A DNA stretch of 64,000 nt from Escherichia coli (GTDB taxonomy: Bacteria; Pseudomonadota; Gammaproteobacteria; Enterobacterales; Enterobacteriaceae). Every line of letters starts with the position of its first letter. The first letter of the stretch is position 1. A model generated the notes under the pieces. It did not search any database. It was not told the DNA's origin and saw only the letters and a list, made by a program, of their open reading frames with translations. Made by a program: the position numbers and the translations under genes. Shown piece by piece: positions 2,377 through 63,994 of this stretch. Location: assembly GCF_030013595.1 (NCBI RefSeq), contig NZ_CP122768.1, one strand, 5' to 3'.

Positions 2377-3246
<870 letters not shown>

Positions 3247-19910: not shown

Positions 19911-21129
19911 TGGCGTTATCCTTCTGCTTACCGGCTTTACTGCCATCGGAGGGCTTCGTGGTCATGTTCATCGGTGTGAGATAGACATCACCACCGGGAC
20001 GCGGATTCATATCTTCCAGGTCGCGGCAGTCATTGGGAGAGTAAATTCCCCAGTTGATCCCGGTGGCGTAGGCTTCAAAACGGGACTTCATATCCCCGCG
20101 CAGTAACGCCCCGGCGTTAAATTTGGCGTAATAAACACCCTGCTTACTTTTTCGTACCAGTCCGGTGTTGATCCGCTGCTCAATGCGGGTCAGATACGGC
20201 ACCAGTGAATAGTTGATAAATCCGAGCCCCAGCTCTTCGATATTGTTGAAGGTGGCGCGATCGGTGTTCTGCACCATGTGCAATGGCACACGGAACAGAC
20301 GACAAATTTCTTCAAGCTGAAACTTGCGGGTTTCCAGGAACTGGCTGTCCTCTGCGTTCAACGCCATCGACTTCCAGTCCAGCCCCATCTCAAGGATCAT
20401 CGGGCGGTGAGCATTGCCAAGCCCGGTGTGACGCTCCTCAAAATCTTTCTTCAGGCGCTCATAAGCCTGATCCGACAGCGTCTGCTCTGTACGCAACACA
20501 CCCGACGTCACCGCGCCATTGCTGAACAGTCTGGCCCCGTGCTCTTCGGTCGCTGCCGCCAGCGATATTGCCTCGCGGGCATAGGCGATGGGATTCAGCC
20601 CCACCAGTCCGTCCAGCGTCAGCGTGCGCACATGCCAGATATCCTCCTGGCTCAGTACATCCGTGGAGCCATCCGGGAATGTGACCTGATAGATCGGCTC
20701 CCAGCTACTGTTAAGCTTCGGTACCACACAGCCGGGATCGACGGGCAGCAGTTCAGCCACTTCGCCAAATGCTTTCACTTTGTAGGCGTAAAAGTTTCCC
20801 CGCAGGCACAGACAGGTGACCACCAGCTCCCAGAACTCCTGCGGCGTCATATAGTCATTGGGATGCGTGGAGATCAGCTTATGCAGACGTTCGCCAGTGG
20901 CTCTCTGCTTCAGGCTGCCGTTCAGGTGATACAGGTTGCAGGGCAACATCCCGACCGACTCCGCCAGCACCCTGACACAGGAAAAAACCGCCGTCAGTCG
21001 CATGGCCCGCTGGCTGCTGATCTGCTTTCCGGTATAGGTGTCGTAGGACAACCCGATAGCATCCGCCAGCTCTGCTGGCGTGGTCACCGGTGCGTCACTT
21101 TTTCGTTGAAATAATCCCGAAAAGAACAC
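19888..21129 (-). CDS. portal protein
   Basis: 413 aa; between terminase and protease. Confidence 0.9.
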   Translation of the reverse strand: MFFSGLFQRKSDAPVTTPAELADAIGLSYDTYTGKQISSQRAMRLTAVFSCVRVLAESVGMLPCNLYHLNGSLKQRATGERLHKLISTHPNDYMTPQEFWELVVTCLCLRGNFYAYKVKAFGEVAELLPVDPGCVVPKLNSSWEPIYQVTFPDGSTDVLSQEDIWHVRTLTLDGLVGLNPIAYAREAISLAAATEEHGARLFSNGAVTSGVLRTEQTLSDQAYERLKKDFEERHTGLGNAHRPMILEMGLDWKSMALNAEDSQFLETRKFQLEEICRLFRVPLHMVQNTDRATFNNIEELGLGFINYSLVPYLTRIEQRINTGLVRKSKQGVYYAKFNAGALLRGDMKSRFEAYATGINWGIYSPNDCRDLEDMNPRPGGDVYLTPMNMTTKPSDGSKAGKQKDNANADETTS

Positions 21130-61612: not shown

Positions 61613-62011
61613 TTACTCACGAATCAGGCGAGCACTCTTACCATTCATTTCAATACGCGAATACTGCGGTTTACCATCAATGATGTCTGTCATCACGAAC
61701 ATCTCACCCGGCTGCAGTTCAACTACTGCGCCTTCCGGCAATTTCATGCAGGCAAATACCGGACAACCAGGATGACGATCATCTTCTGTTGCTTCCAGCA
61801 TTGACTCACCAAACCACTCCGTCGTGGCGCGACCATCAGCTGCTTTGTAGTGGATCAAGTACTGGTTTTCGCCATCCGCATACTGCGCGCGGGCTTTAAC
61901 CTCACCCCATTCATCACTGATGCGCATCTCCACCAGTTGAGACAACTCAAACTTAAACGGAGCAGCATCAGCACCAATTACAATCGGTTTGCTTTCTGTT
62001 TTTTCCATCAT
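61613..62011 (-). CDS. hypothetical protein between lysis cassette and cos
   Basis: 132-aa ORF, no recognisable motifs. Confidence 0.4.
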   Translation of the reverse strand: MMEKTESKPIVIGADAAPFKFELSQLVEMRISDEWGEVKARAQYADGENQYLIHYKAADGRATTEWFGESMLEATEDDRHPGCPVFACMKLPEGAVVELQPGEMFVMTDIIDGKPQYSRIEMNGKSARLIRE

Positions 62012-62182
62012 CGTCTCCTGATATCAAAGCCCGTCGCCGCACCGGGCACTGATCAACATTTGAGTATTCGCGGCGACAGAAAGAATTTATTTTATTGAGT
62101 AGCCACAAACACAGAATTTCATGCTTTCCGGACGCTGGCGCACTCTTCATTTTTCAGCAAAATATTCTGCTCTTACAGGCGA

Positions 62183-62359
62183 TCAGTTCTGCAGACACTG
62201 CCGAACACCGTCGACAATTTCACAGACCAGAGAAGCGGTATCGAAAAGCTGGCGCGCTTTATCCAGGCTGACGCATCCCACCAATAAAAAAGGCACCAGT
62301 ATCGCTACCCATTTCGCCGCCGTTCGCGGCATTCTGTGTGTCCAGTGTTTTCGCGTCAT
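62183..62359 (-). CDS. candidate small lipoprotein (58 aa)
   Basis: Hand-translated MTRKHWTHRMPRTAAKWVAILVPFLLVGC...; basic n-region, hydrophobic core, lipobox LVGC; mature 30 aa with 3 Cys; below track cutoff. Confidence 0.35.
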   Translation of the reverse strand: MTRKHWTHRMPRTAAKWVAILVPFLLVGCVSLDKARQLFDTASLVCEIVDGVRQCLQN

Positions 62360-62360
62360 A

Positions 62361-62474
62361 TCACCACCAACGCACAGCCCAAATCAGAACAGCGACCGCC
62401 ACAAGGCGAATTGCAAAGGCCGCAGCCCTTGTCAAATCAAGGCTCGCGGGAGTTTCCACTTCAATACCTTTCAT
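62361..62474 (-). CDS. candidate 37-aa single-pass membrane peptide overlapping the lipoprotein start
   Basis: MKGIEVETPASLDLTRAAAFAIRLVAVAVLIWAVRWW; GAGG 9 nt upstream of ATG; stop sits 1 nt before lipoprotein ATG. Confidence 0.3.
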   Translation of the reverse strand: MKGIEVETPASLDLTRAAAFAIRLVAVAVLIWAVRWW

Positions 62475-62560
62475 AATGGACAACCTCAAAAAGAATCTTT
62501 TATACTTTCCCACGAGGATTTTCTCCGTACTCACTACTCACAATTTCCTCTCTGACGTGA

Positions 62561-62607
62561 AAACTCAAAACCCCGGACTGTTCCAGCAGCCGGGGTTTTG
62601 TTTTTTT
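62561..62607. terminator. strong bidirectional rho-independent terminator
   Basis: CCCCGG..CCGGGG stem flanked by AAACTCAAAA upstream and TTTTGTTTTTTT downstream. Confidence 0.7.
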
Positions 62608-62887
62608 ATTTACTGCCCTGGGTGCGGCATCTGGCTATTTCACCCCTGGCTTTACTGTCACCGCGACAGATACAACGCACCGTGTCTCCGGTCAACGTGG
62701 TAATGTAAGCCTCATCCTCTTTTTCTACCGGAATACATGGAATATCCCCGCCCCGGCAATACTCAATTTTTGCTGCAAGATGAGTGTCACGCGGATAGAA
62801 CTCCAGACGATACATATCTCCCAGGACATGCACTTCCTCAACCTGGCGACCATCCTCAGTTACGGTAATTTTTTTCAGTGCGTACAT
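62606..62887 (-). CDS. small Cys-rich protein of unknown function (93 aa)
   Basis: ATG at 62885-62887 with GGAGG 5 nt upstream; C-terminus has CxxxxC...CxC...C; flanked by terminators. Confidence 0.5.
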   Translation of the reverse strand: MYALKKITVTEDGRQVEEVHVLGDMYRLEFYPRDTHLAAKIEYCRGGDIPCIPVEKEDEAYITTLTGDTVRCICRGDSKARGEIARCRTQGSK

Positions 62888-62915: not shown

Positions 62916-62942
62916 CAATAAAAAAGCCGCTCATGGCGGCCC
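62916..62942 (-). terminator. rho-independent terminator after endolysin gene
   Basis: GCCGC-loop-GCGGC hairpin followed on minus strand by six U. Confidence 0.55.
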
Positions 62943-62957
62943 TGTATGTTTTGCAAG

Positions 62958-63341
62958 CTATCGCTTCAATTGAAAATGAGGCCCGTCTTTCAGTGTTTTC
63001 CAGTCCCCGCCCCATTCGATGGCAGTTCCCAGCTCTGCGGCAGCCTGCTTAAATGCCTGCGCGATTTTCTCGTACAGAGGCCAGTCCCATGACACCTGGC
63101 TGCCAACCCAGGCCACAACATCCACCGCATCACCGGTCAGGTGGCGGCTGTTCATGGTCTGGCTCTTACCTTCTGCAACCAGCTGTTTCTGGCGTTCTTT
63201 CGTGCGCAGGCCCTCCGTAATACCGAAATCAACCTCCGACAGTTCAAGGGCGCGGCGAACTACAGCAACCAGCTGTGGTTTGACGCCTTCCAGATTTTTC
63301 TCGCTCCGGCGGCTGAATCTGAATTTACCCGACATATTCAC
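62958..63341 (-). CDS. endolysin, peptidase M15 family
   Basis: 127 aa with zinc-binding pattern SRHLTGDAVD ... DGPHFQL. Confidence 0.8.
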   Translation of the reverse strand: MNMSGKFRFSRRSEKNLEGVKPQLVAVVRRALELSEVDFGITEGLRTKERQKQLVAEGKSQTMNSRHLTGDAVDVVAWVGSQVSWDWPLYEKIAQAFKQAAAELGTAIEWGGDWKTLKDGPHFQLKR

Positions 63342-63574
63342 CTCAACAATGGAAAGATTCTTGTGACGTTCCCGCGTGCGCGTATCACCAGCACGCAGAA
63401 CAGCAGATTAAAAAACACATCCAGCCAGCCCGTTGCTAACGGGCGACCACACAGATAGCTGAGAGGCGAAAAGGCATACAGCAGCGTCAGCAGCCAGGCC
63501 AGCCATGACATCAGCGGTTTATGCCTGGAATCGCGACGACGATAAAAAAGAGCGTCAGCACGATAACCGTGCAT
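63338..63574 (-). CDS. small membrane protein of lysis cassette (possible holin/antiholin)
   Basis: 78-aa track ORF with hydrophobic segments; 4-nt overlap with endolysin start. Confidence 0.4.
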   Translation of the reverse strand: MHGYRADALFYRRRDSRHKPLMSWLAWLLTLLYAFSPLSYLCGRPLATGWLDVFFNLLFCVLVIRARGNVTRIFPLLR

Positions 63575-63601
63575 AACGCCACATTCAGTAATCCGGGAAG
63601 G

Positions 63602-63994
63602 TTACTTAACATTACCGCCTCCTCCGCCTCGCAGGCGGGAGAACCGTCCTGACACCAGCGATGCGATATCCTGCTGGTGGATGAACGACAGAATCTTCAC
63701 CGACACCACAGACACCAGCACTGCACACAGCGCGTCGACAGATTTACTGTGAAGCCCCAGTTTTTCGACCAGATAAGACGCCATCACATCCGCCCCCAGT
63801 ACGCCGATAATAAACGACACCAGAAAATGCGCCGCCACCCGCCAGACAGAAAGCGCCTGCGGCATCGTTGCCACAAACAACGCCCCCGCGAACGCACCAA
63901 ACACAATCCCGAAATCCGTTCCGGTGAACAGCCCGAATACCGTCGCCCCTCCGAGCGCAGCCGCCGTGCCGGAACCGGATAAGGGTTCAGACAT
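63602..63994 (-). CDS. putative holin-like multi-TM membrane protein
   Basis: 130 aa, Gly/Ala-rich hydrophobic helices; heads the lysis cassette. Confidence 0.45.
   Translation of the reverse strand: MSEPLSGSGTAAALGGATVFGLFTGTDFGIVFGAFAGALFVATMPQALSVWRVAAHFLVSFIIGVLGADVMASYLVEKLGLHSKSVDALCAVLVSVVSVKILSFIHQQDIASLVSGRFSRLRGGGGGNVK

Follow-up and report, generated by a model that had tools for sequence, protein, structure and literature searches.

Comparison with related phages and prophages indicates that two short open reading frames (ORFs) that close a lysis cassette of the phiP27 type in Escherichia coli are real genes, separate and functional, encoding a 37-residue membrane peptide (pep37) and a 58-residue prolipoprotein (lipo58). 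On the same comparative basis, the lipo58 gene consistently comes last in the lysis cassette, and its family is truly one of orphan lipoproteins, with no i-spanin partner. We tentatively suggest, with a probability judged slightly below even, that lipo58 would mature into an outer-membrane lipoprotein of 30 residues carrying a disulfide and would carry out, or contribute to, the outer-membrane step of lysis with no i-spanin involved, pep37 being a separate accessory. The window considered below, i.e., the whole stretch of DNA analysed, is 64,000 nucleotides long.

All features of the cassette region, including pep37 and lipo58, lie on the minus strand. The cassette opens with the gene for a 130-aa holin (Phage_holin_8; 63602..63994), which is followed by a second holin gene of the Phage_holin_3_7 family (63338..63612) and by an endolysin gene with a match to the M15 family (Peptidase_M15_4; 62958..63341). 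The second holin gene is split here by a 1-nt deletion in a T-run, so that this prophage may not lyse normally. Further downstream, orf94 (62606..62887) encodes a 93-aa soluble protein of phrog_33497, a family without assigned function; flanked by terminator-like hairpins and missing from most of the 80 closest lipoprotein loci of IMG/VR, it looks like a moron inserted between the endolysin gene and pep37. The interval between orf94 and pep37 holds a GC-rich hairpin with T-runs on both sides, resembling a bidirectional terminator (62560..62606); a fold including it reached z = -6.1, and it produced the only Rfam matches, all sub-threshold. Since such hairpins part pep37-lipo58 from the endolysin in this window, co-expression would depend on antitermination by Q, which is encoded outside the window, and a scan of the window found no promoter-like site on the minus strand ahead of the pair.

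The pep37 gene (62361..62474, stop included) encodes a peptide with a single transmembrane domain (TMD), MKGIEVETPASLDLTRAAAFAIRLVAVAVLIWAVRWW, and runs from 62474 to 62361, with a GAGG Shine-Dalgarno sequence 9 nt 5' of its ATG and a TGA stop at 62363-62361. The lipo58 gene (62183..62359, stop included) encodes MTRKHWTHRMPRTAAKWVAILVPFLLVGCVSLDKARQLFDTASLVCEIVDGVRQCLQN, beginning with the ATG at 62359-62357 and ending at 62183. Only base 62360 separates the two genes, the junction (62357..62363) reading TGAtATG, and their translation is probably coupled. A preliminary description of this DNA had correctly placed the end of the 37-aa ORF 1 nt before the ATG of the 58-aa ORF, and the pair after lysis genes (two holin genes, the M15 endolysin gene and one moron precede it), but its title called the ORFs overlapping, whereas they are adjacent.

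Short ORFs alone are weak evidence for genes, as 89 ORFs of at least 25 aa are present in this 6 kb. Both ORFs nevertheless belong to PHROG families, residues 1-37 of pep37 aligning with profile positions 14-54 of phrog_4493 (E = 7.4e-16; the related families phrog_1115 and phrog_3246 match more weakly) and residues 1-58 of lipo58 with profile positions 1-60 of phrog_7528 (E = 1.2e-34). The pN/pS ratio of lipo58 was 0.18 in the named frame against 1.1 and 2.2 in the other frames (0.18-0.29 across the estimates made), and that of pep37 was 0.33 against 1.4 and 1.6; such low values in the named frame only, with control frames above 1, point to purifying selection on both ORFs. An undisrupted lipo58 ORF is present at 84 of 85 loci, and lipo58 homologues form 131 protein clusters in Escherichia, Salmonella, Citrobacter and Cronobacter. 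RefSeq labels both products hypothetical (WP_001305859.1, 37 aa; WP_001138285.1, 49 aa, starting at Met10), and neither matched Pfam (at E <= 1), NCBIfam or PADLOC. A profile search of 1.84 billion representatives returned 23 proteins at E <= 0.001 for lipo58; about 20 were credible, being 44-111 aa long or fusions or fragments of the same gene, and no longer o-spanin occurred among the matches examined. A profile search of the PDB gave only spurious helical-repeat matches.

The lipobox was assessed with a rule similar to the PROSITE PS51257 pattern. When it was applied to the ATG-started ORF variants of 40 aa or more across the window (n = 741), only four passed, two of them being lipo58, whose LVGC sequence makes Cys29 the lipidated residue and leaves Val at +2. 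The rule was also satisfied by 23 of 25 diverse family members, all 23 with V, A, G, T or S at +2 and none with Asp. The signal peptide (residues 1-28; 62276..62359) comprises a long basic n-region, MTRKHWTHRMPRTAAKW, an h-region and L-V-G before Cys29. Comparison of homologues favours Met1 as the start of lipo58 over Met10, the choice of PGAP and of the Kongari et al. (2018) census, because residue 10 is V, I, T or Q in homologues and because, in other cassettes, the ATG of Met1 either overlaps the stop codon of the endolysin gene or lies right next to it. The n-region carries a conserved RKHWTHRxPR motif, in which all close homologues share W6, T7, H8, R9 and P11, and is under purifying selection (pN/pS 0.37). 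Two h-region residues (AL) present in most homologues are missing from this allele.

The mature lipoprotein (residues 29-58; 62186..62275; CVSLDKARQLFDTASLVCEIVDGVRQCLQN) is the most constrained portion of the gene (pN/pS 0.23). It bears cysteines and is not Pro-rich; C29, C46 and C55 are kept without exception in homologues as distant as 35% identity, and Cys46 and Cys55 would probably form an intra- or interchain disulfide. Beyond the signal peptide, the sequence has no further hydrophobic segment and ends in VRQCLQN. The net charge of the mature part is -1 and its amphipathicity only moderate (muH about 0.33, not above shuffles). AlphaFold2, run with a 25-sequence alignment, predicted one long helix at low confidence (mean pLDDT 66, pTM 0.24).

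The conserved core of pep37, AFAIR(L/I)VA(V/I)AVL(I/V)WA(V/I)RWW, corresponds to its TMD and is the only part common to the 28-aa and 37-aa variants of the peptide, which ends with the TMD and has no periplasmic domain. Its start is ambiguous, since the in-frame sequence upstream of the ATG shows nucleotide-level conservation; initiation at a GTG in the same frame (62513) would yield a product of 50 aa. A tblastn search of a phage collection with pep37 gave no match, probably through low-complexity filtering. Among 80 pep37 loci, 75 lead into the lipoprotein through the same 1-nt junction, two more are linked to the lipoprotein but align at an offset, and three, on IMG/VR contigs, lead at +1 nt into a full embedded Rz/Rz1. 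Intact pep37 thus stands directly 5' of a complete Rz/Rz1 in these three contigs as well as in GER2, where the 1-nt junction is the same, and in PhiR5_1. The idea that pep37 is a truncated Rz was discarded, given this coexistence with complete Rz/Rz1. Pep37 is probably an independent inner-membrane peptide of 28-37 residues found in lambdoid lysis cassettes, an accessory or modulator and no spanin subunit, which would be translationally coupled to whichever outer-membrane lysis gene comes next, lipoprotein or Rz. Lcc6 of the Shewanella phage LambdaSo is likewise a tiny single-TMD protein of the lysis region that is neither holin, endolysin nor spanin; the likeness is one of size, topology and location, and a sequence relationship is not expected.

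The place of the lipoprotein at the end of the cassette is stable while its neighbours vary. In the 80 closest loci, the upstream gene is an M15 endolysin at 14 nt on the same strand (n = 33), pep37 at 1 nt (n = 22), another small transmembrane peptide at 4-5 nt (n = 17) or a GH108 endolysin with a 4-nt overlap (n = 1), so that the spacing ranges from -4 to +14 nt. Pep37 is absent from this place in the other 58 loci, and the lipoprotein occurs without it in phiP27 and most relatives. Family members of 35-60% identity keep the order holin-endolysin-lipoprotein, with ATGA overlaps or gaps of 0-10 nt, except for one gap of about 150 nt in one fragmented contig. These divergent cassettes carry either Phage_holin_8 together with Phage_holin_3_7, or Phage_holin_3_1 (three holin families overall), and M15, GH108 or a related endolysin. 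The carriers are Q-dependent lambdoid or Mu-like phages, and the packaging and morphogenesis modules beside the cassette are of lambda Nu1/A type, phiP27 HNH type, Terminase_2 type or Mu-like. The endolysin-lipoprotein interval and the region just downstream form a moron hot spot, which has received orf94, homing endonuclease-like genes and LT-II-type enterotoxin genes. None of the 80 lipoprotein loci showed an Rz homologue within 4 kb, the lipoprotein was not seen together with an intact Rz/Rz1 in the loci examined, and GER2, whose Rz/Rz1 is intact, retains a decayed copy of the lipoprotein. Such comparisons indicate that the lipoprotein slot is interchangeable with Rz/Rz1.

The lipoprotein itself was already known, having been catalogued as the o-spanin of phiP27 together with a 64-aa i-spanin starting at TTG (Kongari et al., 2018), a record that the preliminary description missed. 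This published i-spanin lies antisense inside a 90-aa ORF that has a PHROG family of its own, and the insert carrying the 90-aa ORF is missing from 77 of the 80 IMG/VR loci. Both the 64-aa ORF and phiP27 L31 were rejected as i-spanins, being unconserved and without PHROG match; a 144-aa protein with an N-terminal TMD, encoded about 245 nt downstream (L176-L178), was rejected as well, being restricted to one divergent lineage and not coiled-coil-like. No recurring ORF with i-spanin topology (a lone N-terminal TMD followed by 50 or more residues) was found between -2.5 and +2.2 kb in the 80 loci, and none recurs in the divergent lipoprotein cassettes. The combined periplasmic length of the spanins in the census is 62-300 residues (Kongari et al., 2018), the minimum of 62 being that of phiP27 itself with the doubtful i-spanin counted in; here, the 30 mature residues of lipo58 and the 0-2 residues contributed by pep37 fall below every other spanin surveyed. 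Lipo58 thus shares with two-component spanins an SPII signal with a lipobox, the absence of Asp at +2 and a cassette site downstream of the endolysin, but it has no cognate i-spanin (a type II inner-membrane protein whose periplasmic domain is mostly coiled coil), be it adjacent, overlapping or embedding, and the combined length is insufficient to bridge the membranes. It matched no curated Rz1 or o-spanin model (Pfam at E <= 1; NCBIfam). Pep37 and lipo58 hence appear, from these comparisons, to be neither a spanin pair nor a spanin remnant, and the annotation of phiP27 calls for correction, as its two-component spanin, the shortest in the 2018 census, was built on an unconserved i-spanin ORF.

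In the reading that we prefer, the lipo58 prolipoprotein would be exported by Sec, lipidated on Cys29, cleaved by signal peptidase II and, given the Val at +2, sorted by Lol to the inner leaflet of the outer membrane. Once holin and endolysin have acted, the mature product, a helical peptide of about 30 residues, would break the outer membrane or help to break it. It is the position of the gene that suggests such a lytic role; lipoproteins expressed late, from the last genes of lysis or late regions, can also act otherwise, for instance in receptor masking or serum resistance. With its 30 residues, a peptide anchored in the outer membrane is too short to reach the inner one, and no known spanin mechanism would apply. 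Lacking a cognate inner-membrane subunit, lipo58 would not act by bridging and fusing two membranes and may break the outer membrane in a way yet undescribed. The phrog_7528 lipoprotein might even represent a third kind of phage outer-membrane disruptor, acting alone, lipid-anchored and disulfide-bearing, with neither partner nor fusion and interchangeable with Rz/Rz1, a broader claim that we hold to be possible but rather less probable.

Several known systems share some of these traits. Like the lambda o-spanin, lipo58 is an outer-membrane lipoprotein with an SPII signal and conserved cysteines, encoded at the distal end of the cassette behind the same pep37 gene, but it has no i-spanin, and its mature part has 30 residues, is predicted to be helical and is not Pro-rich; it shows no sequence similarity to Rz1 families and cannot span the periplasm. 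The unimolecular spanin gp11 of T1 is similarly a single lipoprotein gene for the outer-membrane step, but it adds a C-terminal TMD and a domain of about 100 aa that spans the periplasm, and lipo58 has neither, failing by its lack of a C-terminal TMD to qualify as a unimolecular spanin. The lysis proteins of colicins, or bacteriocin release proteins (BRPs; Lysis_col, PF02402), resemble it in having a lipobox precursor of about 45-60 aa and a mature lipopeptide of about 28-33 aa, which permeabilises the envelope; they differ in lacking the C-x8/9-C motif and in belonging to colicin operons rather than to a phage lysis cassette, and lipo58 did not match PF02402 in Pfam at E <= 1. The BRP signal peptide is itself functional, which offers no more than a lead for the conserved n-region of lipo58; by analogy, its signal peptide might add to disruption. 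Non-spanin outer-membrane disruptors do exist, as exemplified by the disruptin gp28 of phiKT (bioRxiv 10.1101/515445). This product of a single small lysis-cassette gene is, as lipo58, tens of residues long and predicted to be helical, and substitutes for spanins where the phage has none, but it is cationic, without signal sequence and no lipoprotein, whereas lipo58 is lipid-anchored, Cys-bearing and of net charge -1. With this charge, a muH not above shuffles and an SPII signal, lipo58 was rejected as a disruptin or antimicrobial-like cationic amphipathic peptide.

Among the alternatives, a minimal two-component spanin made of pep37 and lipo58, or the decayed remnant of one, is highly improbable. 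A TMD protein followed by a lipoprotein just 3' of the endolysin region, with a coupled 1-nt junction, does recall such a pair, and the preliminary description had seen a spanin layout and a possible remnant; yet pep37 stops at its TMD, precedes complete Rz/Rz1 elsewhere and is not directly upstream in 58 of the 80 closest lipoprotein loci (22 of 80 being too few for an obligate pair), and both genes are undecayed, with purifying selection evident across dozens of relatives, neither being homologous to Rz or Rz1, nor matched in Pfam. That description fared better in recognising the LVGC lipobox, an upstream peptide far too short for an i-spanin and a lipoprotein that is Cys-bearing rather than Pro-rich. 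Its option of a stand-alone outer-membrane lipoprotein comes close to what the comparisons suggest. The search it proposed, for a full-length i-spanin in homologous cassettes, revealed none recurring beside the lipoprotein, Rz/Rz1 following pep37 in other phages, and conservation of both frames in relatives, whose absence it had listed as part of a refutation, was found in PHROG families and in-frame selection. We regard as unlikely a genuine o-spanin whose partner goes unrecognised, be it encoded by the host, by another part of the phage genome or, as a holin-family protein, by the cassette itself. Lipo58 occupies the same slot as Rz/Rz1 and has conserved cysteines, as does Rz1, for which a disulfide-linked dimer is needed. 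Although the 2018 census also lists it as an o-spanin, all carriers share only holin, endolysin and lipoprotein, the former two varying in family, the flanks hold no ORF of i-spanin topology, and 30 mature residues are far under the combined periplasmic length of all other surveyed spanins.

Another view takes lipo58 for a late accessory lipoprotein unrelated to outer-membrane rupture, which would mask receptors, protect progeny from debris or change the surface of lysogens. The small outer-membrane lipoproteins of phages provide the precedent: T5 Llp and Cor protect progeny from adsorbing to debris, and lambda Bor alters the host surface in lysogens. Lipo58 is like such exclusion lipoproteins in being small, outer-membrane and probably disulfide-bearing; moreover, it lies in a moron hot spot and the pep37-lipo58 unit is set apart by terminator-like hairpins in the window. 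However, Llp, Cor and Bor are about twice as long, show no homology to lipo58 and are tied to receptor use or to their own promoter in lysogens, whereas the pair has no promoter-like site ahead of it and the ATGA overlap or gaps of 0-14 nt to the upstream gene argue for late operon expression. The gene travels with the endolysin and not with the modules for tails or receptor binding, which vary from carrier to carrier; it matches no Bor, Cor, Llp or defence family in Pfam, NCBIfam or PADLOC, and does not co-occur with intact Rz/Rz1 in the loci examined. This view is rather unlikely, and the exclusion factor put forward in the preliminary description is disfavoured, the gene staying attached to the endolysin while neighbouring packaging and morphogenesis modules change. 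A quite improbable alternative is that lipo58 regulates lysis timing, endolysin or holin from the periplasmic face and does not disrupt the outer membrane. The family is tightly coupled to the endolysin, its signal-peptide n-region is unusually well conserved, and small extra membrane factors such as Lcc6 can be essential for lysis; but unrelated endolysins (M15, GH108) and differing holins make a specific regulatory protein-protein contact unlikely, and lipo58 stands in the position of Rz/Rz1, not of an antiholin.

The preferred role of lipo58 in the outer-membrane step bears on toxin release. The cassette is located directly downstream of stx2e in phiP27-type prophages and brackets LT-II-type enterotoxin genes in an ETEC prophage. 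Reading the lipoprotein as a third kind of disruptor would span lambdoid and Mu-like phages, including such Stx2e- and LT-II-carrying prophages. A 2025 study of porcine STEC showed experimentally that a 130-aa holin downstream of stx2e (WP_032083190) drives the release of Stx2e, and left the crossing of the outer membrane unexplained (PMC12571312). WP_032083190 is likened to the 130-aa holin of this window by length and cassette position only. The lipoprotein is an obvious candidate for the outer-membrane step of Stx2e release. Pep37, for its part, defines a family of membrane peptides of 28-60 aa that recur between endolysin and outer-membrane lysis genes. If lipo58 alone does perform the outer-membrane step, it would constitute a new mechanism alongside spanins and disruptin.

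The lysis cassette runs on the minus strand from a 130-aa holin (Phage_holin_8; 63602-63994) through a second holin of the Phage_holin_3_7 family (63338-63612), an M15 endolysin (62958-63341) and the 93-aa soluble ORF orf94 (62606-62887) to pep37, a 37-aa peptide with one transmembrane domain (TMD; 62361-62474), and the 58-aa prolipoprotein lipo58 (62183-62359). A GC-rich hairpin (62560-62606) separates orf94 from pep37, and a 132-aa ORF (61613-62011) and terminase genes similar to lambda Nu1/A come after lipo58. Over the 521 bases around pep37 and lipo58, identity is 100% to porcine ETEC strains 1732 and 1734 and about 93% to the Stx2k phage phiSTEC1575; the Stx2e phage phiP27 matches the distal half at 93%, from exactly the ATG of lipo58.

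Several features of this cassette deserve mention. The second holin exhibits a T6 run near 63535 where ETEC1732 has T7, which splits it into ORFs of 33 and 78 aa; one IMG/VR locus (L009) carries the same split, which could reflect a pseudogene, a phase-variable homopolymer or a sequencing error and, if real, may alter the lysis of this prophage. The Cys-rich orf94 (phrog_33497, without Pfam domain) resembles a moron acquired between the endolysin gene and pep37, since only some relatives carry it and terminator-like hairpins flank it (62923-62943 and 62560-62606). Between lipo58 and the 132-aa ORF, about 170 non-coding nucleotides (62012-62182, minus strand; about 93% identity with phiP27) had no Rfam match; a long-range inverted repeat seen there by eye, CTGTCGCCGCG ... 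GCGGCGACGGG, was absent from the computed repeat search.

Both ORFs of the preliminary description were confirmed, and pep37 does stop one nucleotide before the lipo58 start (TGA at 62363-62361, one base, ATG at 62359), so that the overlap announced there is in fact a one-base spacer. Both are real genes, and both frames are conserved in relatives under purifying selection: pN/pS is 0.18-0.29 for lipo58 against 1.1 and 2.2 for the alternative frames (49-69 distinct alleles), and 0.33 for pep37 against 1.4 and 1.6 in control frames. The lipoprotein signal was upheld by a PROSITE-like rule (K/R in the first seven residues, uncharged h-region, lipobox Cys), which lipo58 passed with L-V-G-C, Cys29 and Val at +2; of the 741 ORF variants in the window that start with ATG and reach 40 aa, only 4 passed it, two of them being lipo58. 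By lipobox position Cys29 is the predicted lipidated residue, leaving a predicted mature peptide of 30 residues, near-neutral and only moderately amphipathic. Constraint is distributed over the n-region (pN/pS 0.37), the h-region (0.34) and the mature peptide (0.23). lipo58 matches phrog_7528 (E = 1e-34), a family without assigned function, and has homologues in 131 protein clusters from Escherichia, Salmonella, Citrobacter and Cronobacter; Met1, Leu21, Leu25, Gly28, Cys29, Cys46 and Cys55 are invariant down to 35% identity, the last two spaced as C-x8-C or C-x9-C. The true start is Met1 and not Met10, the start used by PGAP (WP_001138285.1) and the spanin census, because homologues have V, I, T or Q at residue 10 and because a Shine-Dalgarno precedes Met1 or its ATG overlaps the endolysin stop. 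In the phiP27 locus (NC_003356.1; locus positions 2953-3184), the deposited annotation (L32, 51 aa) is a wrong frame over an intact lipoprotein ORF of 62 aa (locus positions 2996-3184). The gene also occurs in phage vB_Apl-pPE4 (PP818812.1, 20079-20332), with Actinobacillus pleuropneumoniae as recorded host; one would not expect a copy 94-95% identical to that of E. coli in a host so remote, and the record suggests either contamination or a prophage of E. coli.

The two genes had been read as a possible spanin pair or remnant; the remnant reading proved wrong and a pair is very improbable, each gene occurring also without the other. As had been remarked, pep37, which ends with its TMD (...WAVRWW-stop), is far too short for an i-spanin. 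We also discarded it as a truncated Rz, since it directly precedes, with a 1-nt spacer, a complete embedded Rz/Rz1 in the Stx phage GER2, in PhiR5_1 (there as a 28-aa form) and in three IMG/VR contigs, which also carry lambda-like holin and lysozyme. Conversely, phiP27 lacks pep37, and the upstream neighbor of the lipoprotein varies among its 80 closest loci: an M15 endolysin in 35 (33 at 14 nt; two of phiP27 type at about 460-485 nt), pep37 at 1 nt in 22, an unrelated 44-aa transmembrane peptide at 4-5 nt in 17 and, in one, a GH108 endolysin with ATGA overlap. None of these 80 loci had an Rz homologue within 4 kb, homologous cassettes yielded no full-length i-spanin with the lipoprotein, and a scan for ORFs in which one N-terminal TMD precedes 50 or more residues returned nothing but out-of-frame artefacts and the signal peptide of StxB. 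The alternative of a stand-alone lipoprotein largely holds, as it occurs without pep37 and without spanin partner. In one divergent lineage (lipoprotein P0125; L176-L178), a 144-aa protein with an N-terminal TMD, about 245 nt downstream, is the sole nearby ORF seen with i-spanin-like topology; it is lineage-specific and not coiled-coil-like.

A published census lists phiP27 as a "separated" two-component spanin, with an o-spanin at 20706-20861 (30 periplasmic residues) and a 64-aa i-spanin at 20348-20542; their periplasmic parts add up to 62 residues, fewer than in any other of the 528 systems (Kongari et al., 2018). Its o-spanin is the lipo58 gene started at the second Met. Its i-spanin is unsupported, because it is TTG-started and antisense inside a 90-aa ORF of phrog_36812, has no PHROG match and lies in an insert that, among 80 IMG/VR loci, only phiP27 and one other contig carry. 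The family is thus an orphan o-spanin-like lipoprotein; our literature search found no paper testing its function.

The lipoprotein is also constant as the final gene of the lysis cassette. A profile search over 1.84 billion protein representatives matched only 23 clusters, of which the credible ones are either small lipoproteins built alike or fragments and fusions of the gene. Six divergent members (35-62% identity), viewed in their own contigs, all follow an endolysin, at a distance of -4 to 10 nt in five cases and, on a fragmented contig, of about 150 nt in the sixth. Their cassettes combine Phage_holin_3_1 with M15, GH108 or an M15-like 131-aa protein, or Phage_holin_8 and 3_7 with M15 or, in a Mu-like phage (GemA, Mor, Portal_Mu), GH108; two of the six have a Q antiterminator upstream. 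Downstream genes are unrelated from one member to the next, and since endolysin adjacency is kept while flanking genes differ, the lipoprotein travels with the endolysin and not with tails or packaging. In a cassette of the same type in E. coli E21845/O/A (NZ_CP076272.1, locus positions 808-2830), LT-II-like Enterotoxin A and B family genes are inserted between a GH108 endolysin and pep37, and the lipoprotein gene downstream is frameshifted and decayed.

pep37 matches phrog_4493 (E = 7e-16), also without assigned function; its conserved core is the TMD AFAIR(L/I)VA(V/I)AVL(I/V)WA(V/I)RWW, the N-terminal part being variable or missing (28-aa forms). Related small transmembrane peptides (phrog_1115, phrog_3246, phrog_4906) lie between endolysin and lipoprotein or Rz, sometimes in tandem, and among the 80 closest pep37 loci the lipoprotein follows in 77 and Rz in three. 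pep37 is most aptly regarded as an accessory peptide of the inner membrane in lambdoid lysis cassettes, for which Lcc6 of LambdaSo offers a functional precedent. Its start is ambiguous: the ATG chosen by PGAP, with a GAGG Shine-Dalgarno 9 nt upstream, gives 37 aa, and an in-frame GTG at 62513 gives 50 aa; the nucleotide sequence of this extension is conserved, and it overlaps a site on the opposite strand that resembles a promoter. A candidate antisense small RNA, about 100 nt long, lies there, opposite the pep37 leader (62477-62612, plus strand), with a sigma-70-like promoter (TGGACA-18-TATACT, 10/12 matches, 62477-62506) and a strong 3' hairpin with T-run (62560-62612; -36 kcal/mol, z = -6.1); Rfam gave only sub-threshold matches (sar RNA, 23.8 bits vs gathering score 43). 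The promoter hexamers are kept in all 78 pep37 loci checked, which is not independent evidence because they coincide in part with the Shine-Dalgarno and start codon of pep37.

We tentatively propose, at somewhat under even chances, that lipo58 performs or assists the outer-membrane step of lysis without an i-spanin. The lipoprotein signal, conserved cysteines, fixed endolysin-coupled position, slot interchangeable with Rz/Rz1 and lack of partner are established by the sequence comparisons. lipo58 would be co-expressed late with the lysis genes, exported by Sec, lipidated, sorted by Lol to the outer membrane and given its disulfide by DsbA before acting there. With thirty mature residues the protein is too short to reach across the periplasm, which rules out the spanin fusion model, and a near-neutral, moderately amphipathic peptide is not disruptin-like. 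Weakening of the outer membrane may instead involve oligomerisation or insertion after peptidoglycan loss, or action on a host envelope protein. The signal peptide of bacteriocin release proteins contributes to their function, and the conserved basic one of lipo58 might do so too, which is only a lead.

Other roles seem less probable. A late accessory or exclusion lipoprotein, the latter already evoked in the preliminary description, is at odds with the attachment of the gene to the endolysin and is rather unlikely. An o-spanin with an unrecognised partner agrees with the census call and the Rz/Rz1 slot and, given the empty i-spanin searches, is somewhat more doubtful still; a regulator of lysis, compatible with the endolysin-linked position, is quite unlikely. 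The family is not categorically new, because it is already in databases and was called o-spanin in one census; what is new is the partner-less architecture of this lipoprotein and its breadth, and both are easy to test.
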